A stretch of DNA of 64,000 nt from Candidatus Zhuqueibacterota bacterium (lineage in GTDB: Bacteria; Zhuqueibacterota; Zhuqueibacteria; Thermofontimicrobiales; Thiofontviventaceae), in the NCBI GenBank assembly GCA_036351795.1, contig JAZBPW010000150.1, positions 1,842-65,841 on the forward strand. Reading direction: 5' to 3'. Positions 11,304 to 58,167 of the stretch are shown in pieces; position 1 is the first letter of the stretch; each line of letters begins with the position of its first letter. The notes below the pieces were generated by a model, which was given only the letters and a program-made list of their open reading frames with translations, had not been told where the DNA came from and did not search any database. The translations under genes and the position numbers were made by a program.

Positions 11304-11570
11304 TTACTTCATCAACATCATCTTCATCGTTTTACGATATTCCCCTGTCTGAATGACGCACACGTATACGCCAGTTGGGACATCATTCCCATACTCATCC
11401 AGGCCATTCCAGTGGATTTGATGGGTTCCGGCGTTTCTCGATTCATTCACCAATGTTACGATTTGCTGTCCCAGCAGGTTGAATATTCGCAAGTCGACCA
11501 TACTCTCTTCCGGAAGATCGAACGTAATAACCGTGGCATTATTGAATGGATTCGGATAGTTCTGCCACAG
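11304..11570 (-). other. T9SS type-A C-terminal sorting domain of the giant protein
   Basis: QNYPNPFN is encoded at 11541-11564. The last ~85 aa end ..GVYVCVIQTGEYRKTMKMMLMK. Confidence 0.75.
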
Positions 11571-14500: not shown

Positions 14501-17500
14501 ATTCAACAGATAATGATGTCGAAAAATATCCGTAATTCAGGTCCGTTGGTGTCAATGCCATATTCGGAGCCGGCGTATGAACCTCCATCGAAACAGAGAC
14601 ATTCTTGCCACCTGCATTCGAATTGAAAGGTAGTACCGCATTATAGAAACCTTCGCTCAATCCGGCTCTGTTGATGGTCACATAGACATTTTCCGAAGTA
14701 TTAGCCGACAGTGTACCCGATTGCGGAAGAACACTTGTAACCCAGCTCGAACTGAAGCTGCCAAGATTCCATTGCAACTGGCTCTCACCGCTATTTCGCA
14801 CGACCAGCGTCTCCACCACCGCTACACGTCCGAAATCCAGAGAGGCCGGATTAATGGAGAATACAGGTCCCTGCGGCGCCATCTTAGTGACATAGATCGC
14901 GGAGATCTTTGCCTGATCTTTCACATTTACAAATCCGATATCCAGACGCCCATCAACAACCGATACACCAAGATCACGGGTATTGAAATTATATACCAGC
15001 GCGGCATCATGACCCGCCGCATCGAAGATATCCAGGTTTGTGAGCACCGGCGTCCCTTCAAGCGTAACTGACATCAGGCGAGTATTCCTGCTGTTGTGAT
15101 ATATTTCCGCGAAATGCAATTCAACTTCGTAATCTCCGTTAGGCACTGTAAATCTGTAAGAGCTCAAGCCGTAACGTTCACTCTGATAAAGTACGTCATC
15201 ATTTGTGTTACCGATGGGATCGCTGGTGCTGTAAGGATCGCCACCAACGTAACCAAAACTGCCGGCTGTGTAAGCCTGATCGGCGACCCATTGCTGACTG
15301 CTGTTATCCACGTATGCCGGTCCGCCACAATTGATTCGCCATGCCGATGGACCGCCGACATCCATCTCGATCGGGATATTTATATTTCCACCATTCGACG
15401 AGACAGCGAGAATATCGTTGTAACCGCCATCTCCAAGACCACTGCGATCTACAGTAACGGTCACCATTTGCGACTGGCCCGTACCCAGACTTCCGACTTG
15501 TGGTTGAACATTGGTTACCCAGGCAGAGGCCACATTGGAAACCGACCAGTTGAGAGTCCCGCTGCCGCTGTTTCTGACCTCCAGCTGCAACTGGCTATGG
15601 ATATTCTGGAAATCCAGAATTGCCGGTGATACCGAGAGATTCGGTTGTGGTATCTGCGGAGTACCCAGTATTCTCAGTTTGATCCCGTCCTCAGGATAAA
15701 CCAGATAGAATGTGTTTCCGTTCGCGCGAATGACGTGCTTGTTCCTCGATTCCGCGCAATCCCATCCGTCTGACAGCGCCACCGGATCACCCCAGGTCGC
15801 GCCGCCATCCTGTGAAAGCCGGGTTCTCAATTCGCCGTCCTCTGTGACCAGATATGCAGCGACAACGTTTTCACCATCTGCACTGGCTGCGATTGAACCG
15901 ATACCCATCTTGAATTTCCAATCATCGAGCTCACCCTTCCGGGTTACGCGCACATCGCGGACCTTTCCGCCATTCGAGAATCGAAGATATCTCAGGGATG
16001 GCATTTTATCCACTGTCTGATCGATCGCAACGCCGTAACATACATGCGTTCCATTGACATCATCGACAAAAACATCAGGTGATCCGTTCTCACCCGGCCG
16101 GGCGTCGATATTATTATGAAAATCCCCCATATAACCGAGCTGTCCACCGGGTGTGTTCGAACGCCAGTAGTAAATCGGCCCGCCGGATGACGGGTACGAC
16201 AGATCGCCGGCGATCAGATCAAGAAAACCACCGTCAGACACATCGACTTCATAGCGCTCATCTCCACGCGTCTGATCGATATTATCCTGATGATATATCA
16301 CCGCCCCGTTCTGTAGCACATACATATGAACCGGTCCGGTATTCGTTACGACATCTGTAACAGAACTATGGCAGTAGTAGATCCTGTCCGCGGAATCAGC
16401 GGCAAGTCGCACCACATATCCACGCAGTACATTATCTCCGATCTTCAGGGGTGTTGACCACCCTGTAGCCGATTTATAGGTGTAGTACAGGTCATATCTA
16501 TTACTGCTGCGATAGACACGATAGCCGATATGCGGATAATCCTGGCTGTCAACGGCAATCGACGCGCCGAATCGCATCATCCCCTCATCATTCTCCGCGC
16601 CCGGGACATTTTCCTCGAGCACGACATTTCCATACCTGTCGAGTTTGAAATAGGTAACCCCGTTCTTCATCACAAGCAGATGCAGATTCCCCGTACCTTT
16701 ATGGATATCCAGATCGGGTGTATCACCCGAAGATATCTGGATCGGGGAACTCCAGACATCGCTCAATGCATTTCCGATAAAAACAGGCGTACTCGATGTG
16801 GATATTTGTCCCGATGAGTCAACCACAGTCAATGTCGCCGTGTAAACATTATCAGCGGCATACACATGGTTCACCAGTTGACCGGTACCTGTCTGGCCAT
16901 CTCCAAAATTCCAGCTGTAACCGACGATACCGATATCGTCGTATGATGCACTCCCGTCCAGCGTGACGGAAAATCCGGCATCACCATAATAAGGTCCGCC
17001 GGCATCTGCGACCGGAGCTTGATCATTACTGTTACTGAAACTGATGAAACGCAGCTTTATTCCGCTCTCGACCGGATACACGAGATAGAACCGATTCCCT
17101 GTCGCCCGGATCACATGCTTGTCGCGACTTTCCGCACCACCACAATTGGCGGCCAAAAATTCCCGGTCTTCCCACGTTGTTCCGCTGTTCATTGAGAACG
17201 TCGAATATAGGTCGCCACCATCCGTGTGCGTGTACGCGACGGCAACGATCTGGCCGTTCGCCGAGGAGGCGATGGAAGCGATACCCTGATCCTGCTTCCA
17301 GGGGATACAATCGCCCTCGTTTGTCACGGTCACGTCCTTCACCTTGGATCCGTTCTGCCAGCGGCTGTATCGAACCGACGGCTTATTATTGACATCCGTA
17401 TCTTTTGCCGCACCATAACAGATATGAACAATCCCGCTGGCGTCTGTGAACACATCGGGACAACCATTTCTGTCGATTGCAGCGCCGTCATGAATATCTC

Positions 17501-35041: not shown

Positions 35042-35285
35042 GGACCTAGAATCCAGTCTTGGGTCTCCTTTTTCCAAATTTAACCGCGCATGGTGAATTC
35101 TTCGCAACGTAAACCTCCAGTATGTCGCACCATAAGGCTGCAAAAGTTCTGCAGCTACCTGATCCATCCACCCCTTCTTCCTTGGGAAACGAGGCATGAG
35201 GACATCTTAAATCACAAAAAAGTATTCCGGATGTATCCACGCCTGCATTGTCACTTGCCATGGAAATATGTAGCTCCTGTAGAAA

Positions 35286-36588: not shown

Positions 36589-36619
36589 TGGCAGAAAATC
36601 AGCCTGTATAATGCTGCCA
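36589..36619. promoter_or_regulatory. Inverted repeat TGGCAG-N19-CTGCCA, a candidate enhancer (UAS) for the downstream sigma-54-type promoter
   Basis: Read directly from the sequence. Its centre lies ~116 nt upstream of the GG of the -24 element at 36720-36721. Confidence 0.25.
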
Positions 36620-36718
36620 CTCTGTAGCTTATGTATCAGACAGCTTTTTATCATGCTATTATTCTATATCTTACAGTGCATTCATCCAGCCAAAATTATA
36701 CCGTTTTCATTTCATCCC

Positions 36719-36734
36719 TGGCATAAACTTTGCA
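36719..36734 (+). promoter_or_regulatory. Sigma-54 (RpoN)-type -24/-12 promoter
   Basis: TGGCATAAACTTTGCA versus the consensus TGGCAC-N5-TTGCW. GG and GC are exactly 12 nt apart, as in the consensus. It lies just upstream of the coiled-coil ORF. Confidence 0.45.
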
Positions 36735-36778
36735 AAATTATGCAAATGGTTGAATTTAATGAAAATCGAGAAAATAGC

Positions 36779-37297
36779 ATGAACGAATATGTTGAATACA
36801 ATCCCCAAAATCTGGAGAACATTCTCCTGAAAGTTGAGCAGTTGAACAAATATATTGCCCATCTGGAATCATCCCTCAAAGCAGCTGAGAATAAAAAGGA
36901 CAGCTACAAAAACATCCTCATGAAATACAAAGAGATTCTCGATGAGCAACTGAAACTCTATCAATTACATCGTTCAAATATGTACATGCTCAATGAAACC
37001 ATGAAAGAGAACGAAGTTTTCATGCTCGAACTGGAGCAGGAATTTTTAAGCTACGTCAATTCACAATCAGAGAACACAGATAAAAATGAAAAATCGCTCT
37101 CGTTCAAAAGGATCATGCTCCGGTTTATCCAACAGAACAAAATGTCGAAACTACAACTCAAGGAAAAACTCACAGAGCTGAATGAGACAATAGAACAGAA
37201 GAATCGGTTAATAGAGAGAATGCAGAACGAAGTTAAAATATCCAGCGATTCCGACGATGCTTCTTCACTACCTTCTCAAAGAGTATCCCTAAATTGA
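36779..37297 (+). CDS. Coiled-coil hypothetical protein
   Basis: Heptad-rich, charged sequence (..LKVEQLNKYIAHLESSLKAAENKKDSYKNILMKYKEILDEQLKLYQ..). The start is uncertain: in-frame ATGs at 36611, 36740, 36746 and 36779. I chose 36779 because it lies downstream of the sigma-54-type promoter. Confidence 0.5.
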   Translation: MNEYVEYNPQNLENILLKVEQLNKYIAHLESSLKAAENKKDSYKNILMKYKEILDEQLKLYQLHRSNMYMLNETMKENEVFMLELEQEFLSYVNSQSENTDKNEKSLSFKRIMLRFIQQNKMSKLQLKEKLTELNETIEQKNRLIERMQNEVKISSDSDDASSLPSQRVSLN

Positions 37298-37428: not shown

Positions 37429-38460
37429 ATGATCGAAAAACTCGAAAAGATATATACGGCCACGTATGGTATGGCGCCGGACAAAATCGAGCCATTGAGA
37501 AGCGATGGATCAGATAGAAAAATTTACCGGATATTTCACGGTGATCGTACGGTCATCGGTATCCTCGGAAACAACCGTGAAGAGAATGAAGCGTTCATCA
37601 ATTACTCCAGGCACTTCCGGAATCATGGACTCGATGTGCCCGAAATATATGCGGTCAATCTTGACGAGGGTGTTTATCTGGAAGAGGATCTAGGCGATGA
37701 TACACTGTTCTTGTGGATGATGGCCATCAGAGATAAATCCGGATTCACCGGTGATATAAAAGATGTTTACAGAAGCGTCGTGAAGATATTACCACGATTT
37801 CAGATCACGGCGGGCAAATCCATTGATTACTCCTATGCCTATCAGCACACTGAATTCGCGCTGGAATCGATGAGCTGGGATCTGCACTATTTTAAAAACC
37901 ACTTTTTGAATTACTTTTACAAGCAGAAACTCGATCATACCGAACTCGCGAAAGATTTCAATGCGCTGATGAAGTTTTTACTGCAGGAAAAGCGGGTCTA
38001 TTTCCTTTACCGCGATTTTCAGTCCAGAAATATCATGATTAAAAATCTGAGTCCTTATTTCATCGATTATCAATCTGGCAGGAAGGGCGCGCTGCAATAC
38101 GATCTCGGGTCACTCCTGTACGATGCCAAAGCAAATCTTCCAGAGGACTTCAGAGAAGAATTGATCGATGTATATCTGAAAGAAGCCAGCCAGTTAGGAA
38201 ATATCAACAGCAAAAAGTTCCGGAAATATTTCTACGGATTCGTGCTCATAAGGACAATGCAGGCTTTTGGTGCGTATGGATACCTGAGCGCTGTCAAAGG
38301 AAAAACCCATTTCTTCAAGAGTGTACCTTACGCATTGAGAAACCTGGAAATCCTGTTAAAAAAGGACATCCCCGTTCTGTCGAAGCTGAAAACCTTGAGA
38401 AAAATATTCACCAATCTGACAGAGAATGAAGAGATCACAAAATTCGCCAACGAAATCTGA
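37429..38460 (+). CDS. amgK: APH-fold sugar kinase, AmgK-like (N-acetylmuramate/N-acetylglucosamine anomeric kinase family)
   Basis: 343 aa. Catalytic loop 'YRDFQSRNIMI' (H/YxDxxxxN) and 'IDYQSGRKGALQYDLGSLLYD'. A MurU-like nucleotidyltransferase gene lies two genes downstream, matching the known amgK-murU pairing. Confidence 0.65.
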   Translation: MIEKLEKIYTATYGMAPDKIEPLRSDGSDRKIYRIFHGDRTVIGILGNNREENEAFINYSRHFRNHGLDVPEIYAVNLDEGVYLEEDLGDDTLFLWMMAIRDKSGFTGDIKDVYRSVVKILPRFQITAGKSIDYSYAYQHTEFALESMSWDLHYFKNHFLNYFYKQKLDHTELAKDFNALMKFLLQEKRVYFLYRDFQSRNIMIKNLSPYFIDYQSGRKGALQYDLGSLLYDAKANLPEDFREELIDVYLKEASQLGNINSKKFRKYFYGFVLIRTMQAFGAYGYLSAVKGKTHFFKSVPYALRNLEILLKKDIPVLSKLKTLRKIFTNLTENEEITKFANEI

Positions 38461-38878
38461 TCTGACTATCCGCCTGAACTCATTCGGGTATCAAAAATCA
38501 GGAATTCCCGCCGATACGACAGGCAACAATGGTGGGTTCGTATTCGATTGCCGCTTCCTGCCGAATCCAGGTCGCGAAGAAAGATACAGATCACAGAACG
38601 GCAGAGATATCGCCGTCATCCAATACCTTGAAAAATATCCGGAAGTCGAGCAATACCTCAACAACGTCATTGAAATCATAGACCTCGCGATTGAGAGTTA
38701 CATCGAACGTGACTATACCAGTTTGATGATATCCTTCGGATGTACGGGCGGACAGCATCGCTCTGTCTATTGTGCGGAACAAATCATGAAACATCTGAAA
38801 AAACGGAATGTCTCTATTGAACTCAATCATGTTGAGCTGGGCATATCCGAATCATATGATTCACCACGCGAATCTTGA
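38426..38878 (+). CDS. Stand-alone RapZ C-terminal-domain protein (no P-loop N-domain)
   Basis: 'LNSFGYQKSGIP...FVFDCRFLPNPGRE...GRD..V..YLEKYPEV..YL......I.....Y..R.YTSLMISFGCTGGQHRSVYCAEQI' matches the RapZ/YvcJ C-terminal domain (SFGfkyG..aD.vfDvRfLPNP....GCTGG.HRSV). The ATG at 38426 overlaps the amgK-like 3' end by 35 nt in another frame. Confidence 0.65.
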   Translation: MKRSQNSPTKSDLTIRLNSFGYQKSGIPADTTGNNGGFVFDCRFLPNPGREERYRSQNGRDIAVIQYLEKYPEVEQYLNNVIEIIDLAIESYIERDYTSLMISFGCTGGQHRSVYCAEQIMKHLKKRNVSIELNHVELGISESYDSPRES

Positions 38879-38914
38879 ACTGCGACTGAAACGTCCGGAT
38901 GACAGGACTTCACC

Positions 38915-39646
38915 ATGAAAGCAATGATTCTGGCAGCGGGATTTGGTACGAGGCTGAGGCCATTGACAGACAACAAACCGAAAGCCCTCGTCGAATTGAA
39001 TGGAAAACCGATCCTGCAGATACTTATCGAACGATTGATTCAGTTCGGAATCAATGACATCATCATCAATGCGCATCACTACTCCGATCTGATCGTAAAT
39101 TTTCTTGAGGAAAAAGAGCACTTCAATATCAATATTGTGATCTCAAGGGAAGAGGATATTCTCGGTACGGGTGGTGGCCTTGCGAAAGTTGCACATTTTT
39201 TCGATGATGACGCCCCTTTTCTGCTTCATAATGTGGATATTGTGACGAATCTCAATTACCGTCATCTTCTTGAACACCACCTGTCAGGCGATAATCTGGC
39301 CACACTCGTGGTATCAGAAAGGGAGACATCCAGATATTTTTTCATCGATAGAAATGATCTGATATGTGGTCATGGGAATCAAGACAATGCATTGCTGCGG
39401 ATCATGAGATATCCATGCTGTCTGAGCAGGAAGGTCGCATTCAACGGGATTCACATCATATCGCCGGAAATTTTAAGCAATATCACCGAAAGAGGCACAT
39501 TTTCCATCATCACTCTCTATCTTCGATTGATCGCCGAAGGACACAAGATCGGCGCCTATCACATGCCTTCATGCTACTGGAAAGATATCGGCAGAATCAA
39601 AGATTTGCGGTCTGCTGAATCAGAGATCGGGAAAACAGATCTTTGA
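38915..39646 (+). CDS. murU: Sugar-1-phosphate nucleotidyltransferase, MurU-like (MurNAc-alpha-1-P uridylyltransferase family)
   Basis: N-terminal 'MKAMILAAGFGTRLRPLTDNKPKALVELNGKPIL' nucleotidyltransferase signature. 243 aa. Operon context with the amgK-like kinase. Confidence 0.65.
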   Translation: MKAMILAAGFGTRLRPLTDNKPKALVELNGKPILQILIERLIQFGINDIIINAHHYSDLIVNFLEEKEHFNINIVISREEDILGTGGGLAKVAHFFDDDAPFLLHNVDIVTNLNYRHLLEHHLSGDNLATLVVSERETSRYFFIDRNDLICGHGNQDNALLRIMRYPCCLSRKVAFNGIHIISPEILSNITERGTFSIITLYLRLIAEGHKIGAYHMPSCYWKDIGRIKDLRSAESEIGKTDL

Positions 39647-39699: not shown

Positions 39700-40635
39700 T
39701 TAATTGGATTCATTTTTGGCTTCGGCATATTTGCCAGCATCCCAGCCATAATCTTCATAATGCCAGGTGAGTTCATCACCCGATACGTCAATCACGGCAA
39801 ATCCCTCAGGGAATTCGAATCGAGGTCCCTGCCACCACGATCCCGATACTGCGCCGGCGGTGATATACTTCACTCCGTAATAGTTGATCTCTTCGACAGT
39901 ATGCAGATGGCCCTGCAGTACCGCTTTCAAATTGTATGGATCACAAATCCGATTCACTTCATGCGCGTTCGTCACAACCAGACGTTCACTGTTCTGCGTC
40001 ATGGGCCCATTCCTGTATTGCAGGAATATTGAATAGAACGGAATATGCGTCACCAGCACAACCGGCTGGTCACTCTCGATTTCGGACAGATCCTTTTCCA
40101 GCCACTTCATCTGATTCAGATCGATCTCTCCGCGATAATTGCGTTCGGGTGTCATCTGCATGGCATCCAGAAGCACGAAGTGCCATCCCTTGTGGTCGAA
40201 CGAGCGATATGTTCTGCCATCACCCAGTCGATTCGCGAACATCTTTTTGCCGAATTCAGGATGCTTCGCATCGACGCCACTGTTTGGATACCACCCGAAT
40301 ATCTCATGATTGCCGATCGTATTATATACCGGCATATTAAATTCCTGAATCAACTCAGCATACAGATTATACAATGAATCCGCATGTTCATATCCGGTGG
40401 CAAGAACATCGAATACCAGATCCCCGCCGGTGACGACAAAATCGGGCCTGGGATCCAGCAAATTGACGGCTTCGATCGCAGCTTTGAAACCTTCAACCGC
40501 TCCAAGTTTTTGCTGACAGTGAATATCGGTCAGAAAGACGAAACGGAATTCATTCTCATCTGATTGACAACCGGTTAACAATGGAAGTATAAAAATAAAA
40601 GCAAGAATCAATGCCGATATCTTAATGCGACGCAT
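39700..40635 (-). CDS. Calcineurin-like metallophosphoesterase lipoprotein
   Basis: ATG at 40635 has GGAG 8 nt upstream and gives MRRIKISALILAFIFILPLLTGC (lipobox); the ORF-track start at 40671 is a GTG. Motifs 'FLTDIH', 'GGDLVFD', 'GNHE' and 'VTHIP'. Confidence 0.8.
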   Translation of the reverse strand: MRRIKISALILAFIFILPLLTGCQSDENEFRFVFLTDIHCQQKLGAVEGFKAAIEAVNLLDPRPDFVVTGGDLVFDVLATGYEHADSLYNLYAELIQEFNMPVYNTIGNHEIFGWYPNSGVDAKHPEFGKKMFANRLGDGRTYRSFDHKGWHFVLLDAMQMTPERNYRGEIDLNQMKWLEKDLSEIESDQPVVLVTHIPFYSIFLQYRNGPMTQNSERLVVTNAHEVNRICDPYNLKAVLQGHLHTVEEINYYGVKYITAGAVSGSWWQGPRFEFPEGFAVIDVSGDELTWHYEDYGWDAGKYAEAKNESN

Positions 40636-40688
40636 AATCAGACTCCATAGAAAAAATGGCTCCGGAGACACTATCCGCAGCCATCATA

Positions 40689-41091: not shown

Positions 41092-42660
41092 TTACAGATT
41101 CTTCACTTGTCTGATACTGTCCAGGATCGTGCCATCCACCCATTTGACAACAGCGACGACCTTGTCACTCGTCTCCGCCCTGGCGGGTTTTCCACCGCAT
41201 ATTTCCTCGATCTCTTCCTTGAGTTCTTCGATCGTGCGGATGGGAAGGTCTGTATGCTCTACCCGTTCCAACAGATCTTTCCTCAACGGATTGATCGCAA
41301 TCCCGCGCTCCGTCACAACGACATCGATGAGCTCGCCAGGGCCACACAGAGTTGTCACCTCGTCCACAATCACGGGAATCCTGTCGCGAAATGAGGGGAT
41401 GGGCAAAATAGTGCATTTCGAAAAAAGACAGTTCTGCCATCCGCCAATCCCGTGCAGCAGCTTGCCATCGGAATGCGTGACGACATTGGCATTGAAATTG
41501 ACATCGACTTCTGTGGCGCCCAGAACCACGACATCCACCATCGATGCGAAATTTCCCTTTCCATGATAATTATAACTGGTGAAAGGACTCGTATTCACAT
41601 GAGTGGGGTTCTCACGCATGGAGCGTACCCCCTCGAGATCAAACGTCTGGCCGTCGAGGATATAATCGGTCAAGCCCTGTTCAAGCATGTCAACCAGGTA
41701 TTGTGTGCTGCCTCCGCGGACGAATCGCGCTTTAATTCCGGCCTCCTTCATCATCTCTTTCAGATAGATCGCAAAAGCAAGGGATGTTCCACCGGCCCCT
41801 CCCTGAAATGAGAAACCATCGGTCATCAGTCCGGCGTCCCGGACAAACCGCGCCGTCATTTCGGCGATCAGCAACCGGTCAGGACTCTTGGTGATCTGTG
41901 TTGTTCCGGAAATGATTTTTTCCGGCTCTCCGATCTTGTCCATGACCACCACAAAATCGACGTAATTCCCCTGTATCTGCCATGGTATGCAAGGAAAGTC
42001 GATGAGGTTATCCGTCACGACAATAACCTTATCGGCGTATTGCGAATCCGCGAGAGCGAATCCCAGGAGTCCGCAGGCAGAAGGTCCGGTCAATCCATTG
42101 GCATTGCCAAAGGGATCGGCAGTGGGTGCAGCGATCACCGCGATATCTATATGCACATCACCATCCTGTACCGCCTGGTAACGTCCTCCGTGCGATCGTA
42201 AGACACCAAGGCCTTTCATCTTGCCGGACGAGCAATAATCTCCGAGCGGACCATTCATCGATCCTTCGATATGATGAATCACGCCAGACTCCATATGATC
42301 GATTATCGGTGCGTGGCAGGGGAAAGATGCACTCGGAAACCACATCAGATCCTTCACACCGATTTGTGCGGCCGCTTTGAATACATGATTCGCCACCAGA
42401 TCACCATTTCGAAAATGATGGTGGGTAGAGATCGTCATACCATCCCTGATCCCCGCGTTCAACAGCGCCTTCTTCATATTCTCGACCACTTTATTTCCAT
42501 CATCCGGATAATCACTGCAGGATGCAATTGGAGGTGCCGTTTTCCGACCGGAAGGTTTGTATTTTCCCACTCCCTGATAGGGCACAGCAGGACGGCCATT
42601 CACGACATCGGGAACGAATCTTCCCGCAGCATTCTTCACCATCTTCGATTTCATCGTCAT
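41092..42660 (-). CDS. citF: Citrate lyase alpha subunit (citrate CoA-transferase) family
   Basis: 'GIRDGMTISTHHHFRNGD' aligns with E. coli CitF 'GLQDGMTVSFHHAFRGGD'. About 520 aa. ATG at 42660 overlaps the upstream TGA as ATGA; the ORF-track start at 42675 is a TTG. Confidence 0.8.
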   Translation of the reverse strand: MTMKSKMVKNAAGRFVPDVVNGRPAVPYQGVGKYKPSGRKTAPPIASCSDYPDDGNKVVENMKKALLNAGIRDGMTISTHHHFRNGDLVANHVFKAAAQIGVKDLMWFPSASFPCHAPIIDHMESGVIHHIEGSMNGPLGDYCSSGKMKGLGVLRSHGGRYQAVQDGDVHIDIAVIAAPTADPFGNANGLTGPSACGLLGFALADSQYADKVIVVTDNLIDFPCIPWQIQGNYVDFVVVMDKIGEPEKIISGTTQITKSPDRLLIAEMTARFVRDAGLMTDGFSFQGGAGGTSLAFAIYLKEMMKEAGIKARFVRGGSTQYLVDMLEQGLTDYILDGQTFDLEGVRSMRENPTHVNTSPFTSYNYHGKGNFASMVDVVVLGATEVDVNFNANVVTHSDGKLLHGIGGWQNCLFSKCTILPIPSFRDRIPVIVDEVTTLCGPGELIDVVVTERGIAINPLRKDLLERVEHTDLPIRTIEELKEEIEEICGGKPARAETSDKVVAVVKWVDGTILDSIRQVKNL

Positions 42661-43862
42661 GAGTCCTCTCTCCAATTCGCTTTTAATTTATTGGTTGCTA
42701 CTGCCAGGTCGACGGTATGCAAGGCGCCCTTGACAACAGGCGGATCGATCATTTTACTACCCAGTGAAACCACGCCCAATCCCTTTGCCTCCGCCTCTTC
42801 GAATGCCAGCACGATCCTTTTGGCACGCGCTATCTCGGCCTCCCCGGGTGCGAAAGCGTCGTGTATCACATCGATTTGTCGCGGATGAATACAGCCTTTT
42901 CCATCAAAACCAAGCGACCTGGCCTCGATCACACTGCGGCGCAGTCCATCCATATCCGACACATCGGAAAAGACTGTATCAATCGGCTGAATCCCCGCAG
43001 CACGCGCCGCATTCACAACCATGGAGCGCGCCCACAAACTCTCCTTCCCCTCTGTGGTCCGCTGAGTTCCGATGTCCGCCGTATAATCTTCCAAACCGAT
43101 GGTCAATGCGACAATGTTCTTCGCAGCTGTTGCGATGTCATAAGCATGCAAGATCCCTTTTGCGCTCTCCAGAATGGGCATATAGAAAACCGAGTGTGAG
43201 GAGCCACACATATCACTCACTTTGTCATCCACGGCTACAACATGATCAGCGCTTTCGCACTTTGGTATGAGGATCACGTGGGCATTATGTTGTGCTATGT
43301 AACTGATATCATCCAATCCTCGGGGCAGCTGATTGATACGAACCATCCTCTCAGCACCATAGAAATTCACCTGACAAAGCGCGTTTCTGACCAGAACTGC
43401 GGCTGCATCCTTCTCAGCATTGGCCACGCTGTCTTCAAGGTCGAGTATAACGCCATCGGGATTATGAAGTCCTGCGTTGAGCATGAATTTGGGTTCATTC
43501 CCGGGCAGATAGAGTCGCGACCTGCGAAATCGTGTGCGCGCGCTTTCATATTCAGACCAGCTCCTCATCTCAGGAAGGTACCCTTCTCCAATGTCCGCGT
43601 CAGCCCTTCTCAGCGCAGCCTCGATTCGCGCCATGAGGACAAATGGCACAGCACCATAATCTTCTATAACGAGAATGGCATGCGACACATTGCATGCTTT
43701 CATCATTTCATTCGCGAGCCGCTCAATCGACTCACCGTACATTGCCTGGACTTTACTCTTCACATTCACCTCGATGCCGCCTGAATCTCTGAGTTCAATC
43801 TGAACCCAGCAATCCGATCGGACATCAGAGCCCTTTCTGCCGGCTTGTGCAACAGCCTTCAT
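42657..43862 (-). CDS. Fused citrate lyase acyl-carrier (gamma, CitD) and citryl-CoA lyase (beta, CitE) protein
   Basis: The N-terminal ~95 aa 'MKAVAQAGRKGSDV...IEVNV.SKV...YGESIERL..EMMKACNV.HA.LVIEDYGA..FVL.ARIEAALRRA' follow the CitD layout. This is followed by CitE motifs 'RRSRLYLPGNEPKF', 'DGVILDLEDSV' and 'FDGKGCIHPRQI'. ATG at 43862 has GGAGGA 7 nt upstream. Confidence 0.75.
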   Translation of the reverse strand: MKAVAQAGRKGSDVRSDCWVQIELRDSGGIEVNVKSKVQAMYGESIERLANEMMKACNVSHAILVIEDYGAVPFVLMARIEAALRRADADIGEGYLPEMRSWSEYESARTRFRRSRLYLPGNEPKFMLNAGLHNPDGVILDLEDSVANAEKDAAAVLVRNALCQVNFYGAERMVRINQLPRGLDDISYIAQHNAHVILIPKCESADHVVAVDDKVSDMCGSSHSVFYMPILESAKGILHAYDIATAAKNIVALTIGLEDYTADIGTQRTTEGKESLWARSMVVNAARAAGIQPIDTVFSDVSDMDGLRRSVIEARSLGFDGKGCIHPRQIDVIHDAFAPGEAEIARAKRIVLAFEEAEAKGLGVVSLGSKMIDPPVVKGALHTVDLAVATNKLKANWREDS

Positions 43863-43929
43863 TACCAAATCCTCCAATTAAATATCTTTCCCAGGAAACA
43901 AAAATTACGAAATTTAAATTTGAGAATCC

Positions 43930-43959
43930 ATAAAAAAGGGCTCCATTACAGAGCCCTTT
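43930..43959 (-). terminator. Rho-independent terminator after maeB
   Basis: Minus-strand RNA: AAAGGGCUC-UGUAAUG-GAGCCCUUU followed by UUUAUGG. It lies 23 nt downstream of the maeB stop. Confidence 0.8.
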
Positions 43960-43981
43960 ATCAACAATCGTGTCTCTGATT

Positions 43982-46234
43982 TTACTTACTGTTATCCTGG
44001 GCTTCTACCACACCGATGGCCGTCATGTTCACAATGTCATTGACTTCACAACCGCGTTGTAGCACATGCACTGATTTTTGAAGCCCCATGAGAATCGGCC
44101 CAATGGCCTCGGCACCACCCAGACGCATTAGAAGCTTGTACGCGATATTCCCGGATTGAAGGTCGGGGAATATCAATACATTGGCGCTGTTTTTCAGGCT
44201 GGAGAAGGGGAAGTCCTCTTTGATGATATCATAAACGACTGCGGTATCAGCCTGCATTTCGCCATCTACCATCAGATCAGGCTTCTTCTCCTTGACGATC
44301 TCCGTTGCCCGCTTCACCTTGATTGAAAGCGGATGCTCCACACTTCCAAAATTGGAAAAGGAGAGCATCGCAATCCTGGGTTCAATGTCGAATCTTTTTA
44401 CTGTCTCCGCTGTCAATAGAGCAATATCAGCCAGATCTTCGGCGGTCGGATCTATATTGACAGTCGTATCGGCACAACATATGATCTTGTTTTTGAAAAG
44501 CAGCATGTACATACCGGCGATCTTTCGCACCTCCGGCCGCGCCTTGATCACACGCAGCGCCGGACGGATCGTATCCGGATAATGCATGGTCACTCCGGCG
44601 ATCACGCAATCGGCATCGTCCAGATTCACCATCATCGGTGCAAAGAAGCGCCTCTGTTCCATGATCTTGCGAACGTCGGTCAGAGTCTCACCCCGCCTCT
44701 GTCGCATTTTATAGTACTCCTGGCAATATTTATCAAACATGGGAGCGTTTTCCGGATCGATGACAGGGACATCTTTCAGATCCAGCATGAGCTCTTTCGC
44801 GCGTTTCTTGATATACTCGGCACGCCCCAGCAAGATCGGTTTTCCGATCGACTCCTGTTTTACGATGGCAGCGGCGCGCAGGATCTTGTCGTGTTCACCT
44901 TCAGGATAGACGACGCGTTTCGGCTCACGGATAGCTTTGTTGATGATGAAACGCATCATTTCTCTCGATTTTCCAAGCCGCGCTTCCAGTTCTTCCTGGT
45001 ACTTCTCCAGATCGATCTCATGCCTGGCCACACCGGTATCCATAGCCGCCCTGGCAACGGCAGGCGCTTCCCAAAGAAGCACGCGGGGATCGAAAGGTTT
45101 GGGTATGATGTATTCGGGACCGAATGCCAGGCGCTCGACACCATAAGCCTTGCACACCGAATCCGGCACGTCCTCTTTAGTGAGGTCTGCAAGCGCCTTG
45201 GAGGCGGCAATCTTCATTTCATCATTGATGGCGCTGGCTCTCACATCGAGCGCGCCACGAAATATGAACGGAAAACCGAGAACATTGTTAACCTGATTCG
45301 GATAGTCCGAGCGGCCTGTTGCCATGATCACATCCGGACGCGCATCCTTTGCAGCATCATACGTGATTTCCGGATCCGGGTTCGCCATTGCGAAAATAAT
45401 CGGATTATCCGCCATCGACCGAACCATCTCCTTGGTGACGCAGTCCTTAATCGAAACACCACAAAAAACATCGGCACCCTTCATCGCCTCCTCGAGCGTC
45501 CGTGCTTTCGTATCACTCGCATATTTTTCTTTGTAAGGATTCATACCTTGTGCGCGCCCCTTGTAAATGACTCCCTTGCTGTCGCACATGATGATATTAC
45601 CTGGTGTCACTCCGAGCAGTACGTAGAGGTCGGCACATGCAATCCCGGCTGCTCCTGCGCCATTGATAACGACAATGACATCGCTCACCTTTTTATTTAC
45701 GATTTCACAGGCATTAATCAGCGCCGCACCGGAAATGATCGCTGTGCCATGTTGATCATCGTGAAAAATCGGGATATTGCTCGTCTTCTTGAGTGTCTCT
45801 TCGATGTAAAAACACTCCGGCGCCTTGATATCTTCGAGGTTTACACCGCCGAAAGTGGGTTCCATCAACTGAACCGCCCTGATCACTTCATCGGGATCTT
45901 CTGTGTTCAGTTCGATATCGAACACATCGATATCGGCAAATCTTTTGAAAAGCACACCTTTTCCTTCCATGACAGGCTTGCCTGCCAGTGGGCCGATATT
46001 GCCAAGCCCCAGTACTGCCGTTCCATTCGAAACGACAGCCACAAGATTGCCTTTTGCTGTATATGTAAAGGCGTCTTCTGGATTTTTATGAATATAGCGG
46101 CACGGCTCAGCCACACCAGGTGTATAAGCCATGGATAAATCACGCTGTGTCGCGCAGGGTTTTGTCGGTGTAACCTCGACCTTTCCCTTCCTGTCTCTGC
46201 TGTGATATTCGAGAGCTTCTTTTTTAAAGTCCAT
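43982..46234 (-). CDS. maeB: NADP-dependent malic enzyme with a C-terminal phosphotransacetylase-like domain (MaeB type)
   Basis: 750 aa. N-terminus '[36 protein letters not shown]', 'NGAGAAGIA' Rossmann motif and a PTA-like C-terminal half. Confidence 0.9.
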
Positions 46235-54471: not shown

Positions 54472-55689
54472 ATGAATTCAAAACATATGATCATTTTCTG
54501 CCTCTTGCTGATTCCATTCGCCTGCGCGACCGAACAACAGGTAAAACCGGGTATCGACATCCTTCTGGAAGAACATCTGGATCTGGTCACCGGGAAAAGT
54601 ATTGGACTCATCACCAATCCAACCGGATTGACCCATGACATGCGCTCGTCTATCGATGCGCTTCATGAAAATCCCGAAATAACGCTCACAGCCCTTTTCG
54701 GACCTGAGCACGGTGTACGCGGAGACATCGAGGGTGGGTACCGTATCGAAAACTATGTCGACGAAAAGACAGGCATACAGGTTTTCAGCCTGTATGGCGC
54801 GACAAGAAAACCGACACCGGATATGTTGGATGGCATCGATGTATTGATGTACGATATACAGGACATCGGTTCGAGGGCCTACACATATATTTACACAATG
54901 GCGCTGGCAATGAAAGCCGCGGCCGAACACAGCATCCCCTTCATCGTATTGGACAGACCCAATCCACTGGGAGGCGAGCTGGTGGAGGGAGATGTACTAG
55001 ATACGACGTTCAGTTCATTCATCGGCATGTATCCCATACCCTATGTGTACGGAATGACAGTGGGTGAACTCGCATTGCTGTTCAACGAAGAATTTGATAT
55101 TCATTGCGACCTCACTGTCATCACCATGAAGAACTGGAAGCGGAGTATGCGATTTGAACAGACCGGACTCCATTGGGTGCTGCCGTCACCGCACGTGCCC
55201 CGGTCGTCCACTTCGGATTTCGTGGCCACCACCGGCTGCATAGGTGAACTGGGGACTGTTTCCATTGGTGTCGGTTACACGCTGCCGTTCGAGCTGGTCG
55301 GCGCTCCCTGGATAGAGCCAGAGATACTTGCGGACGAGCTGAATTCCCAAAATCTGGCCGGCGTAGAATTTCGCCCGCTGTACTTTCGTCCTTTCTACTA
55401 CCATTTTGAGAAAGAACAATGCGGAGGTGTTCAGATCCATATAACAGATTATGCGGCCTTTTCACCATTTACCGCACAAATCCATATTCTCACCGCCCTG
55501 ACGAAGCTCTTTCCGGAACACGATATATTCGACACAAGGAGAATTACTTCGTTCGACAAAGCATTCGGTACGGATCAAATAAGAGTCAAGATCCGAAATG
55601 GGATATCTGCCGATGAAATTCTTCAGGCCGGACAGAATGGACTCAATCATTTCTTGTCGATACGATCGAAGTACTTACTCTATGAATAA
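54472..55689 (+). CDS. namZ: DUF1343 / NamZ-family exo-beta-N-acetylmuramidase lipoprotein
   Basis: Lipobox (..LIPFACA). 'GLITNPTGL', 'LFGPEHGVRGD' and 'DIQDIGSRAYTYI' are motifs typical of DUF1343. Confidence 0.75.
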   Translation: MNSKHMIIFCLLLIPFACATEQQVKPGIDILLEEHLDLVTGKSIGLITNPTGLTHDMRSSIDALHENPEITLTALFGPEHGVRGDIEGGYRIENYVDEKTGIQVFSLYGATRKPTPDMLDGIDVLMYDIQDIGSRAYTYIYTMALAMKAAAEHSIPFIVLDRPNPLGGELVEGDVLDTTFSSFIGMYPIPYVYGMTVGELALLFNEEFDIHCDLTVITMKNWKRSMRFEQTGLHWVLPSPHVPRSSTSDFVATTGCIGELGTVSIGVGYTLPFELVGAPWIEPEILADELNSQNLAGVEFRPLYFRPFYYHFEKEQCGGVQIHITDYAAFSPFTAQIHILTALTKLFPEHDIFDTRRITSFDKAFGTDQIRVKIRNGISADEILQAGQNGLNHFLSIRSKYLLYE

Positions 55690-55707: not shown

Positions 55708-56250
55708 ATGATTCCCAGCTATATATTCTTTACAAAAGGAGTCGGAAAACATCGAGACAAACTTCAAAGCTTTGAACTGGCTTTGAGGGGCGCAGGGATT
55801 GAAAAATGTAACCTGGTTCAGGTGTCGAGTATTTTTCCACCAAACTGCAAGATCATTTCAAAAGAGAAGGGACTTGAGTTAATCAACCCCGGCCAGATCA
55901 CCTACACTGTAATGGCAAGAAATCAGACGAACGAGCCTAACCGTCTCCTGGTCGCTTCCATCGGTATCGCACTCCCTGCAGATAGAACCGGATACGGATA
56001 TATCTCAGAGTATCATTCATTTGGAGAGATAGCTCTGAAAGCGGGGGACTATTCAGAGGATCTCGCGGCAACCATGCTCGCTACAACACAGGGGATTGAA
56101 TTTGATCCTGAGACAGCCTGGGATGAAAGAAAACAGGTGTATAAAGCTTCTGGCAAAGTATACAAGACCAGAAATATCACTCAATCCGCGCGTGCTGATA
56201 AAGATGGTTTATGGACGACCGTCATCGCATGCGTCGTTTTCCTGGATTAG
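55708..56250 (+). CDS. pdaD: Pyruvoyl-dependent arginine decarboxylase proenzyme
   Basis: 180 aa. '[11 protein letters not shown]' aligns with the self-cleaving Ser-Ser site of archaeal PdaD ('NLIRISSIMPP'); the S-S codons are at 55825-55830. AAGGAG SD upstream. Confidence 0.8.
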
Positions 56251-56254
56251 TACT

Positions 56255-57307
56255 ATGAATAAATTTTTACACAAACAAAAAATCCAGCCCCTCAAGATCC
56301 AGAAGGGATTGACAATTTCTCAACTTGTTGATCTGTACAACGCATCCGGATCTTTCCAGGGTGGAAGACTGGGTGAGGCCGCACGACTCTACCGAAAGAT
56401 GATTCAGGAAGATACTGTCATCTGCATGACAATCAGCGGCGCCATGATCCCTGCGGGTATGGGCGGAATTATCAGCGAGTTGATCAGGAACGGATTCGTT
56501 GATATGATCATCTCCACCGGTGCCAATCTCTACCACGACATGCATTTTGCGCTCGACCTGCCTGTGCACCAGGGTGACTTCAATGTTGATGACAGGGAGT
56601 TGTTTCACGCTGGAATAGAGCGTATATATGATATATTCATCACCGAAGATCTTCTTAAGGACACGGATTTATTCATCCAGGATGCGCTTGGTGATTTCAA
56701 CACAGCAAGACCTGTGTCCACCTCACAGATTCATTACCATCTCGGGCAGAAGATCAAATCGAACACGCCTTTTCCGGAGCGTTCTCTGCTGGCCACTGCC
56801 GCGGATTGCGAAGTGCCGGTATACACCAGCTCATTCGGAGATTCTTCCATTGGTATGAATGTGGCATTTCTTCAAACGAAAAACATAGATATTGTTGTCG
56901 ACCCCAATCTTGATGTCTGGGAAACATCCGCAATTGTCTTCAATAGTCAAAAGAATGGTGTCGTGATCATTGGCGGCGGTTCTCCTAAGAATTTTTACCT
57001 GCAAACGCAGCCGTTCATCAGCCAGATTGCCAGTTTCGACCACAAAGGCCATGATTTCGATATTCAAATTTCTGTGGACGCGCCCCATTGGGGCGGTCTC
57101 AGCGGGGCCACACCAAGCGAAGCTATCTCATGGGGTAAAATAAATCCGAATGAAATAAAAAACAGTGTTGTCGTTTACAGCGATGCGACAATCGCGCTTC
57201 CCATTTTAGCCGGGTATGCGCTTGCAGAAGAGGATGCACAAGAAACTAAAAAGTTACTGACAAATGTCTCCGAATCTGTGAAACTATTCCAAGAGCTGAT
57301 AAAATGA
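56255..57307 (+). CDS. Deoxyhypusine synthase-like protein (DHS/homospermidine-synthase-type aminobutyl transferase family)
   Basis: I trimmed the start to the ATG at 56255, 4 nt after the pdaD stop; the ORF-track start at 56096 lies inside pdaD. 'TISGAMIPAGMGG...GFVDMIISTGANLYHD' and 'GGGSPKNF' fit the DHS family. Confidence 0.7.
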   Translation: MNKFLHKQKIQPLKIQKGLTISQLVDLYNASGSFQGGRLGEAARLYRKMIQEDTVICMTISGAMIPAGMGGIISELIRNGFVDMIISTGANLYHDMHFALDLPVHQGDFNVDDRELFHAGIERIYDIFITEDLLKDTDLFIQDALGDFNTARPVSTSQIHYHLGQKIKSNTPFPERSLLATAADCEVPVYTSSFGDSSIGMNVAFLQTKNIDIVVDPNLDVWETSAIVFNSQKNGVVIIGGGSPKNFYLQTQPFISQIASFDHKGHDFDIQISVDAPHWGGLSGATPSEAISWGKINPNEIKNSVVVYSDATIALPILAGYALAEEDAQETKKLLTNVSESVKLFQELIK

Positions 57308-58167
57308 ATGCCAATCGCTTTTTAGGCAATGATATAGATCCCTGGCCCTTCGATCGATGCAGAACAGTAATTATATCTGCACCCCTGGAGGAAACAACAA
57401 CGTACGGGAAAGGGACTTCTCTTGGTCCCAAGGAGATTATCAACGCATCTGCCTATGTCGAGTTGTATGATGAGGACCTTGATATTGAACCATGTCACTC
57501 CGGCATCTACACCCATAGTGGTATATCAAATGACATCTCACAGGAGAGCTTTCTTGCTGAACTCGAGGATGTGATATATAATCTTCTTGGTAAAGGCAAA
57601 TTTCCAGTCACAATCGGAGGCGAGCACTCACTCTCAATCTCCCCGGTGCGCGCTTTGAAAAGAATCATGGGCAATACATTCTCGGTCATTCAGCTGGACG
57701 CGCATGCTGATTTGCGCGACGAATATGAAGGATCAAAATATTCTCATGCGTGCGTTATGCGCAGAATTGTTGAAGAGGATATTCATACCATTCAACTTGG
57801 CATTCGAAGTCTCAGCAGCGATGAAGCCAGACTCATCCGGGATCATTCTCTGGATGTCGTATTCGCAAGAGATATAAAAGAAGGTAGCCAATGGCGTGAT
57901 AAGCTAAATACAATGCCTGGTGGTGACGCCTACATCACATTGGATGTCGACGTTTTTGATCCTTCCGTGATTTCACATACCGGAACACCTGAACCGGGTG
58001 GATTGAACTGGTTTGAGATTCTGGACATTATGCGTACGATCAGGAAAAACAAAGTAAATATCCTTGGATTCGATCTTGTGGAATTTTCTCCGAAAAAAGA
58101 TCACGAAGCACAGAGCTTTACATGCGCAAAACTGATATATAAAATGATTGGAATGTTTGCAGAATGA
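57304..58167 (+). CDS. speB: Agmatinase (ureohydrolase family)
   Basis: Mn-binding motifs 'GGEHS', 'LDAHADLRD' and 'ITLDVDVFDPS'. The start overlaps the DHS-like stop as ATGA (57304-57307). Confidence 0.85.
   Translation: MNANRFLGNDIDPWPFDRCRTVIISAPLEETTTYGKGTSLGPKEIINASAYVELYDEDLDIEPCHSGIYTHSGISNDISQESFLAELEDVIYNLLGKGKFPVTIGGEHSLSISPVRALKRIMGNTFSVIQLDAHADLRDEYEGSKYSHACVMRRIVEEDIHTIQLGIRSLSSDEARLIRDHSLDVVFARDIKEGSQWRDKLNTMPGGDAYITLDVDVFDPSVISHTGTPEPGGLNWFEILDIMRTIRKNKVNILGFDLVEFSPKKDHEAQSFTCAKLIYKMIGMFAE

Follow-up and report, generated by a model that had tools for sequence, protein, structure and literature searches.

The window, by which we mean the whole 64-kb stretch of DNA analysed here, carries three consecutive genes on the plus strand, in the order kinase, RapZ_C and nucleotidyltransferase. 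The first (37429..38460) encodes a 343-aa APH-fold, AmgK-like kinase, the second (38426..38878) a stand-alone RapZ_C protein of 150 aa, and the third (38915..39646) a 243-aa MurU-like sugar-1-phosphate nucleotidyltransferase. The first two of these genes share 35 nt (38426..38460, plus strand), and RapZ_C is read in the +1 frame; the initial annotation had placed the ATG of the middle ORF 35 nt inside the kinase gene in a different frame, and this was confirmed. On the minus strand, a 71-aa protein with five invariant cysteines is encoded at 35046..35261. A NamZ gene, also reported by the initial annotation, occupies 54472-55689, and both of its domains were matched by profile (NamZ_N, 292.8 bits; NamZ_C, 145.5 bits). 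It lies 15 kb from the three-gene unit and offers circumstantial support for cell-wall salvage. Scans of the 64-kb window returned no tRNA and no Rfam match; the window therefore contains neither GlmY nor GlmZ.

The middle ORF had been assigned to the RapZ/YvcJ C-terminal type, and the expected hallmarks SFGYQKSG, FDCRFLPNP and GCTGGQHRSV are all present. A search with the Pfam RapZ_C profile (PF22740) upheld this assignment at 124.8 bits (E 2.7e-36), far above the cut-off of 27, and placed the domain proper at residues 14-138 of the 150-aa ORF (38465-38839, plus strand). The NCBIfam model of RapZ (NF003828) scored 114.2 bits against a cut-off of 244, with the match confined to model positions 155-277. 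A RapZ-type N-terminal Walker A motif was found in none of the three proteins, and Pfam identifies the protein upstream of RapZ_C as APH-fold rather than P-loop. ORF 38426-38878 is a RapZ C-terminal domain without a P-loop domain. Its AlphaFold2 model (pLDDT 93.5) superimposes on the C-terminal domain of E. coli RapZ (5O5S) with a TM-score of 0.90 and an rmsd of 1.5 Å, the corresponding sequence match has an E-value of 1.6e-19 at 34% identity, and a Foldseek search of the PDB with this model returned RapZ structures as the sole matches.

A survey of 80 species-level genome loci from Bacteroidota, Acidobacteriota, Elusimicrobiota, Ignavibacteriota and other phyla places this arrangement in a wider context. 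Kinase and RapZ_C form a single ORF of about 480-500 aa in 75 of the 80 loci, and the kinase lies directly upstream of RapZ_C, fused or separate, in 79. The nucleotidyltransferase follows directly downstream of RapZ_C in 65/80, and in one relative a GlmU-like long transferase takes the place of the short one. Identity to the window ranges from 43 to 55% for RapZ_C in the genome loci; for the kinase it is 32-48% in phylum-diverse loci and reaches 69% in KSB1-like fusions. Fused and split forms occur together within the KSB1-like clade (53-69% identity) in at least three separate groups. Fused homologs are annotated as ‘phosphotransferase’ or ‘aminoglycoside/choline kinase family’. When the 2321 ORFs of these loci were clustered all against all, no further conserved neighbours emerged, the other recurrent clusters being antisense ORF artefacts or present in at most six loci. 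Amidase_3, MurA or Peptidase_S13 genes near the module in some relatives provide a weak cell-wall context. Judged from these comparisons, the window is the split form, in candidate division KSB1, of a widespread two-gene module, of which gene 1 is a predicted kinase::RapZ_C protein and gene 2 a predicted sugar-1-phosphate nucleotidyltransferase with MurU as its closest named relative.

RapZ_C also occurs in other company. Members of the same subfamily that have no adjacent kinase are found beside an MFS transporter in Chlorobiota and Ignavibacteria, and in four proteins (P0043, P0048, P0059 and P0364) the Cys-rich domain is fused to the RapZ_C C-terminus. Because of these two kinase-free settings, the role of RapZ_C is not strictly tied to the kinase. 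The Cys-rich gene occupies the same relative position at a KSB1 locus (L083), and its homologs are found on contigs with kinase and RapZ_C genes. The family has no match in Pfam or NCBIfam, and the AlphaFold2 model of the 71-aa protein is of low confidence (pLDDT 68.7). No Pfam domain was recognised in the longer family members, the RapZ_C fusion excepted, and they resemble miscalled ORFs. The five-Cys protein is a possible accessory partner of the module.

The two enzymes bear out the names they were first given in part. The kinase matches the APH family (PF01636) at 41.3 bits, and the AmgK models NF045759 and NF045698 are its sole meaningful NCBIfam matches; AmgK thus stands as its best named match, but at 58.2 and 44.1 bits it falls far below the equivalog cut-offs of 550 and 500. 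The same models give 27-74 bits for fused homologs, and the closest PDB match of the kinase is 3csv. As expected of an APH/protein-kinase-like fold with catalytic Asp/Asn and a Mg-binding Asp, its sequence contains YRDFQSRN (194-201) and IDYQ (212-215), and among 78 homologs the catalytic residues R195, D196, N201 and D213 show conservation of 95% or more. The transferase (PF00483, 101.8 bits) likewise has the MurU models NF045761 and NF045697 as its top two NCBIfam matches, yet its 127.7 and 107.8 bits compare with cut-offs of 250 and 370. Its closest PDB match is MurU (4Y7T, 87.8 bits), nearly tied with Man-1-P guanylyltransferases at 85-87 bits, and it also matches CTP:phosphocholine cytidylyltransferase. 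The N-terminal G-x-G-T-R...K signature is present as LAAGFGTRLRPLTDNKPK, with G9, G11, R13 and K23 at least 95% conserved. With their catalytic residues conserved to this degree, both enzymes appear active. That AmgK and MurU emerge independently as the best named matches of the two enzymes supports a link to the salvage pathway. Because the scores lie far under the equivalog cut-offs and the guanylyltransferases are so close, the substrate could nevertheless be another sugar.

Four of the five pocket residues of E. coli RapZ recur in RapZ_C. In the E. coli protein the pocket is formed by H190, T248, G249, H252 and R253, and the loop cradles sulfate or malonate through backbone amides and Arg253 (PMC5737377). 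Alignment to E. coli RapZ (5O5S/5O5O) makes the window loop C106-R112 the equivalent of C247-R253; the phosphate-binding loop C106-T-G-G-Q-H-R112-S113 is encoded at 38741..38764 on the plus strand. T248, G249, H252 and R253 correspond to the identical residues T107, G108, H111 and R112, all of them conserved to 95% or more across 81 sequences that span several phyla. Across these phylum-diverse RapZ_C sequences, 31 positions reach this level of conservation, and 24 of the 31 are identical in E. coli RapZ. The dimer-interface residue D182 is likewise conserved, as D41. H190 is replaced by Gly49, followed by Arg50, and a Gly-rich insertion of five residues lies near this site. The isolated C-terminal domain of E. 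coli RapZ binds GlcN6P with high affinity (PMC7073468); given the substitution at H190 and the insertion, the ligand of the window protein may differ from GlcN6P.

On balance, we consider it probable that RapZ_C forms a dimer, binds phosphosugars and serves as a subunit that controls or assists amino-sugar salvage along an AmgK/MurU-like route. In such a scheme, the kinase would phosphorylate a salvaged amino sugar at C1, most likely MurNAc and/or GlcNAc, and the transferase would turn the sugar-1-phosphate into a nucleotide sugar for cell-wall synthesis. RapZ_C would dimerise through the conserved Asp41 surface and associate with the kinase. A phosphorylated amino sugar would be held in the pocket of the C-x5-R loop, much as GlcN6P is bound by the E. 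coli protein. The effect could be to tune the kinase to the hexosamine-phosphate pool, or to hold the phosphosugar between the two enzymes.

The same module might instead serve another pathway, in which a different sugar or alcohol is activated for a surface glycan and RapZ_C senses an intermediate; GlcNAc or GalNAc alone or a hexose would be candidates, as would a choline-like head group of the kind known from LicA/LicC. Scores against the AmgK and MurU models amount to only 10-50% of the cut-offs, and the transferase is nearly tied with the guanylyltransferases and matches the phosphocholine cytidylyltransferase. The GlmU-like transferase of one relative and the lack of any cell-wall recycling gene among the conserved neighbours point the same way. 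Against this, AmgK is the sole named kinase family with a meaningful score, MurU heads the transferase matches in both NCBIfam and the PDB, and a connection between amino-sugar phosphates and the RapZ domain is already known. The broad, housekeeping-like distribution of the module also suits peptidoglycan better than a lineage-specific glycan, and we regard a different pathway as unlikely.

A catalytic role for RapZ_C, with its Cys-x5-Arg-Ser loop serving as a cysteine phosphatase or phosphotransfer site, strikes us as rather doubtful. The loop does fit the pattern C-x5-R-(S/T), and its conservation of at least 95%, Cys included, extends across phyla and to E. coli, where it cradles sulfate or malonate. 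In Pseudomonas salvage, the enzyme that removes the 6-phosphate is MupP. As one example, RapZ_C could in a MupP-like manner take the 6-phosphate off MurNAc-6P or GlcNAc-6P and so feed the anomeric kinase, and the kinase::RapZ_C fusion would then be a two-step converter of 6-phosphate to 1-phosphate. The Pseudomonas route does need a MurNAc-6P phosphatase (PMC5371407), and tight fusion to the kinase would suit consecutive reactions. The agreement is at the level of the pattern only, however. A phosphatase-like fold for the loop was rejected, as the Foldseek search of the PDB gave RapZ alone and no significant match to a phosphatase, PTP, LMW-PTP, PTS-IIB, PFK or arsenate-reductase fold. None of the literature searched ascribes phosphatase activity to a RapZ C-terminal domain, and that of E. 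coli acts as a high-affinity GlcN6P binder, not as an enzyme. A bolder form of this proposal, which makes the RapZ C-terminal domain a portable enzyme and the fusion a converter in place of MupP, perhaps under redox control by the five-Cys partner, seems distinctly improbable; if true, the ancestral activity of RapZ/YvcJ would be enzymatic too.

At the junction of the two genes, skipping the T of the kinase stop codon (ATC|T|GAT) yields a 482-aa product that aligns without gaps to the fused homologs, so that the stop sits exactly where a 1-nt frame change restores the fusion. The initial annotation had raised the prospect of a frameshift in the data at this point. Two independent assemblies of one relative, 88% identical to the window (L081 and L082), keep the 35-nt overlap, the ATG and a stop at the same codon, there TAA in place of TGA. 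RapZ_C evolves under purifying selection (dN/dS 0.215, window versus L081), and dN/dS of the kinase is 0.055. On these grounds, assembly error and pseudogene were both rejected, and the split is not an artefact. The 35-nt overlap is best read as the scar of a 1-nt indel in a former interdomain linker. Such an indel would have divided gene 1 in a KSB1-like genome, leaving a kinase that ends at the linker, with RapZ_C made as its own polypeptide in the +1 frame from the ATG that lies 35 nt upstream; translational coupling is the probable means.

Because the stop falls exactly at the join, a programmed +1 ribosomal frameshift at AUC-UGA-U was also considered; it would produce the fused 482-aa protein, and RapZ_C would not be truly stand-alone. 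Consistent with it, the 12-codon leader ahead of the RapZ_C domain, a segment of low pLDDT in the model, is unconstrained as protein, and downstream of 38426 no ATG, GTG or TTG occurs before the domain begins. The site itself, though, offers neither a Shine-Dalgarno-like stimulator nor any slippery codon of the known +1 types, and the relative has UAA where the window has UGA while conserving the ATG at 38426. In many KSB1 relatives, moreover, RapZ_C is a clearly distinct gene that starts at an ATG of its own; in L083, one of these, the overlap is 8 nt. Frameshifting is therefore very improbable here. With the RapZ_C profile, the adjacency and the split all holding, the idea that an AmgK-type kinase replaces the usual P-loop partner is borne out, in trans in the window and by fusion in 75/80 loci.

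Homologs of the window RapZ_C are publicly annotated as ‘RNase adapter RapZ’ or ‘ATP-binding protein’, but it is scarcely credible that the protein is an RNA-binding adaptor like RapZ or the remnant of a decaying gene. Its tail VELGISESYDSPRES is acidic (one K/R against four D/E), unlike the basic, RNA-binding one of E. coli RapZ, and only Enterobacteriaceae have that RNA-binding region (PMC7073468). The window has no Rfam match and thus neither GlmY nor GlmZ, and purifying selection together with cross-phylum conservation opposes decay. From its sequence, then, the window protein is not expected to be an RNase adaptor.

Three known systems invite comparison. RapZ/YvcJ proteins occur in many bacterial phyla, and the window protein has the same C-terminal fold as E. 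coli RapZ (PDB 5O5O, 5O5S, 8B0I), B. subtilis YvcJ and M. tuberculosis Rv1421. Common to both are the phosphate-binding loop GCTGGxHRSV and the dimer-interface Asp, an order in which a kinase-type domain precedes the C-terminal domain, and amino-sugar metabolism as the functional setting; the N-terminal domain of Rv1421 binds UDP and UDP-GlcNAc (PMC11229554). The window protein differs in having no P-loop N-domain; an unrelated APH-fold kinase stands in its place, in trans here and fused in relatives. Unlike RapZ, it also has no basic RNA-binding tail, carries Gly-Arg at the H190 site and bears the five-residue Gly-rich insertion.

The second system is the AmgK-MurU peptidoglycan salvage bypass of Pseudomonas putida/aeruginosa, Tannerella forsythia, Caulobacter and Legionella. 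There, as in the window, an APH-fold kinase and a minimal sugar-1-phosphate nucleotidyltransferase are encoded together, and the catalytic motifs are intact in the window. The window enzymes score far under both the Pseudomonas-type and the Tannerella-type equivalog cut-offs and so would form a separate clade, and their module has the extra RapZ_C domain or subunit, of which a combined RapZ and AmgK/MurU search found no mention in the AmgK/MurU literature. The third system, the APH::RapZ_C fusions, comprises direct homologs with the same gene order, collinear after the 1-nt frame change; the window and part of KSB1 differ in making separate polypeptides, from genes that in the window overlap by 35 nt. 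Our literature search returned no paper linking RapZ with AmgK or MurU and no description of an APH::RapZ_C (phosphotransferase) fusion. As RapZ_C is fused to the kinase in most relatives, it marks a widespread module, and kinase, RapZ_C and transferase make up a widespread, unstudied and putative three-part sugar-salvage module.

In evolution, the RapZ C-terminal domain acts as a module in its own right. It has repeatedly been fused to or split from an unrelated AmgK-like kinase, and it is also found with partners such as an MFS transporter and a small Cys-rich protein. These varied partnerships suggest that its core job may be to bind phosphosugars in a way coupled to a kinase, an idea for which the module offers a simple enzymatic test system. 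Annotation is corrected as well: despite the public labels, the stand-alone RapZ_C has neither an ATP-binding domain nor an RNA-binding tail. Pseudomonas owes its intrinsic fosfomycin resistance to the AmgK/MurU bypass, through which its peptidoglycan can also be labelled metabolically. The module described here suggests that a regulated or extended form of that bypass may operate in major gut and soil phyla such as Bacteroidota and Acidobacteriota.

The plus strand carries, as now confirmed, a stand-alone RapZ C-terminal domain between a kinase and a nucleotidyltransferase. The three open reading frames occupy exactly the positions assigned to them by the initial annotation: the kinase at 37429-38460 (+; 343 aa, PF01636 (APH) by Pfam), the RapZ_C ORF at 38426-38878 (+; 150 aa, PF22740) and the transferase at 38915-39646 (+; 243 aa, PF00483 (NTP_transferase)). 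The middle ORF starts, as described, 35 nt within the kinase gene in the +1 frame and contains the reported motifs SFGYQKSG, FDCRFLPNP and GCTGGQHRSV. Its residues 14-138 score 124.8 bits with PF22740, for which the cut-off is 27. Only the C-terminal positions 155-277 of the NCBIfam RapZ model are matched (114 bits versus a cut-off of 244), and the RapZ-type Walker A motif is absent from the three-gene unit, in keeping with the proposed lack of a P-loop N-domain. An AlphaFold2 model from an alignment of 95 homologs (pLDDT 93.5) retrieved only RapZ structures in a PDB fold search; the isolated E. coli C-terminal domain (5O5S) matched it with a TM of 0.90 and an rmsd of 1.5 Å.

This arrangement is widespread, and the two first genes are usually one. 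Scanning one genome per species with the RapZ_C alignment yielded 80 loci from Bacteroidales, Chitinophagaceae, Acidobacteriota/Terriglobales, Elusimicrobia, Ignavibacteriales, Chlorobiota and others, in which neighbours and fusions were counted by tblastn and stop-free-frame analysis. Immediately 5′ of RapZ_C, 79 of the 80 loci have a homolog of the window kinase, and immediately 3′, 65 of the 80 have a nucleotidyltransferase. Kinase and RapZ_C form a single uninterrupted ORF of ∼470-520 aa in 75 loci, so that both the adjacency and the fusion suspected earlier are borne out. Clustering all ORFs of the 80 loci revealed no further conserved neighbours. Of the best 120 kinase homologs, 30 are fusions carrying both PF01636 and PF22740 (471-484 aa) and the remainder measure 337-375 aa; the fused forms are scattered over at least three separate similarity groups, so fusion and fission have occurred repeatedly. 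Stand-alone RapZ_C of this subfamily, lacking an adjacent kinase, occurs in a Chlorobiota genome (L004, 6028-7725) and an Ignavibacteria contig (L085, 8001-9693). In both, the gene for an uncharacterised MFS transporter comes only a few bases after it, and the two transporters are orthologs with 53% identity. On its 5′ side, RapZ_C of L085 has a PA0069-family radical SAM gene.

The component domains are already known, and precomputed Pfam annotations show the fusion architecture. NCBIfam has no model that spans the fusion, targeted literature searches did not find it described, and a search combining the terms returned no paper on RapZ together with AmgK or MurU. Public names are generic or wrong ('phosphotransferase', 'ATP-binding protein', 'RNase adapter RapZ'). 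Stand-alone RapZ_C proteins of 130-140 aa (the homologs P0005, P0037, P0071, P0085, P0120 and others) bear the latter two names, yet lack both an ATP-binding domain and an RNA-binding tail.

AmgK models are the only meaningful NCBIfam matches of the kinase (58.2 and 44.1 bits; cut-offs 550 and 500) and MurU models the top matches of the transferase (127.7 and 107.8 bits; cut-offs 250 and 370), all four scores falling far under the curated cut-offs. With the kinase halves of the fusion proteins, the AmgK models reach just 27-74 bits; these halves form a separate kinase clade with AmgK proteins as nearest named relatives. The closest PDB entry to the kinase is 3csv ('aminoglycoside phosphotransferase'). 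Kinase catalytic residues R195, D196, N201 and D213 and transferase signature residues G9, G11, R13 and K23 are all at least 95% conserved, and both enzymes are presumably active. In Pseudomonas and Tannerella, AmgK and MurU convert MurNAc or GlcNAc via the 1-phosphate to the UDP-sugar (PMC7670621). Because AmgK and MurU are independently the best named relatives of the two enzymes, we propose that these would constitute an AmgK/MurU-like amino-sugar salvage route. Action on a different sugar is possible, since the family thresholds are missed and Man-1-P guanylyltransferases are nearly tied with MurU in similarity to the transferase; a GlmU-like long transferase in one relative points the same way.

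The C-terminal domain of E. coli RapZ holds malonate or sulfate in a pocket formed by H190, T248, G249, H252 and R253, for which phosphate-group binding was suggested, and requires D182 for dimerisation (Gonzalez et al., PMC5737377). The isolated domain binds GlcN6P; its pocket is widely conserved and the RNA-binding tail is found in Enterobacteriaceae only (Khan et al., PMC7073468). T248, G249, H252, R253 and D182 correspond to T107, G108, H111, R112 and D41 of the window protein, whereas H190 is replaced by G49-R50 and a 5-residue Gly-rich insertion is added. In 81 multi-phylum sequences, 31 positions are at least 95% conserved; 24 of these are identical in E. coli RapZ, including the whole loop C106-T-G-G-x-H-R-S. 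Given this pocket conservation, an acidic C-terminal tail and the absence of any Rfam match in the window, RapZ_C is best read as a protein that would dimerise and bind phosphate or a phosphosugar, and not as an RNA adaptor. The loop (38741-38764, +; E. coli C247-R253) carries the GCTGGxHRS hallmark of all RapZ C-terminal domains and fits, at the pattern level only, the C-x5-R-(S/T) cysteine-phosphatase pattern, a likeness of which we found no mention in the RapZ literature covered. RapZ_C could have phosphatase or phosphotransfer activity, for instance as a MupP analogue, but the fold search supported no phosphatase fold. An RNA adaptor, or gene decay, is essentially excluded.

The kinase/RapZ_C split in the window is genuine and recent. 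Its nearest relatives belong to candidate division KSB1, with syntenic flanking genes in the common order Beta_helix, YARHG, coiled-coil ORF, kinase, RapZ_C, transferase, CitF, CitE. Omitting the T of the kinase stop codon joins the two frames into a 482-aa product that aligns without gaps to fused homologs across the interdomain linker, so the split looks like a 1-nt indel there. In the KSB1 locus L083, kinase and RapZ_C are clearly distinct genes that overlap by 8 nt. The window's overlap encodes a 12-codon leader, which is unconstrained and predicted to be disordered. A +1 ribosomal frameshift at AUC-UGA-U, yielding a translational kinase::RapZ_C fusion, is very improbable, no known stimulator having been found at the site. 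A decaying pseudogene is rejected on dN/dS values of 0.215 for the RapZ_C domain (window versus L081) and 0.055 for the kinase (compared with L082). An assembly artefact, such as the frameshift considered in the initial annotation, is likewise rejected: L081 and L082, two assemblies made independently for one relative with 88% identity, both keep the identical 35-nt overlap, the ATG and the kinase stop codon position (TAA versus TGA in the window).

A coiled-coil-like ORF without family match (36611-37297, +) precedes the kinase gene by 131 nt in the same orientation, is kept at the same place in L083 (44% identity) and may share the module's transcription unit in KSB1. In other lineages, the RapZ_C C-terminus is fused to a ∼70-aa domain with five invariant cysteines, which in the window is a separate 71-aa gene (35046-35261, −; C16, C20, C37, C45, C58). 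It matches no family in Pfam or NCBIfam, the AF2 model has low confidence, and the protein family comprises only 215 representatives at 50% identity. Homologs in KSB1 and Calditrichia are 60-77% identical, and L083 has the ORF, uncalled in the annotation, at the same relative position (3947-3735). This protein may be a fourth module component in KSB1 and Calditrichota. Its ORF partly overlaps the annotated start of a 600-aa beta-helix ORF; the latter probably begins downstream of that annotated position.

A metallophosphoesterase gene (39700-40671, −) runs towards the module, and the N-terminus of its product is predicted to be signal- or lipoprotein-like; the close relative L081 shares the gene (91% identity), and L083 lacks it at this position. 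Beyond it lie the citrate lyase alpha subunit (CitF), a CitE-like ORF and a 750-aa ORF (41092-46234, −), the latter two being, by synteny with L083, a putative fused ACP/beta subunit and a putative malic enzyme/PTA fusion. The previously noted NamZ exo-beta-N-acetylmuramidase gene (54472-55689, +) is upheld by NamZ_N (292.8 bits) and NamZ_C (145.5 bits) matches; 15 kb separate it from the module, to whose operon it does not belong. Instead, L083 carries an Amidase_3 gene close to its module. A polyamine-type cluster (55708-58167, +) encodes a pyruvoyl-dependent arginine decarboxylase, a deoxyhypusine-synthase-like protein and an arginase/agmatinase-family protein, and a very long ORF (2743 aa) occupies 11304-19535 (−).

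We infer the sugar, the ligand, complex formation and the regulatory effect alike. RapZ_C would partner the kinase, as a fused domain in most phyla and as a separate polypeptide in the window, and would dimerise it; by binding a phosphorylated amino sugar, it would tune the kinase or hold the intermediate. Canonical RapZ and the module alike place a kinase-type domain before the same C-terminal domain, although the kinase folds differ. The mycobacterial homolog Rv1421 binds UDP and UDP-GlcNAc through its N-domain (PMC11229554), which again places the RapZ family in amino-sugar nucleotide metabolism.
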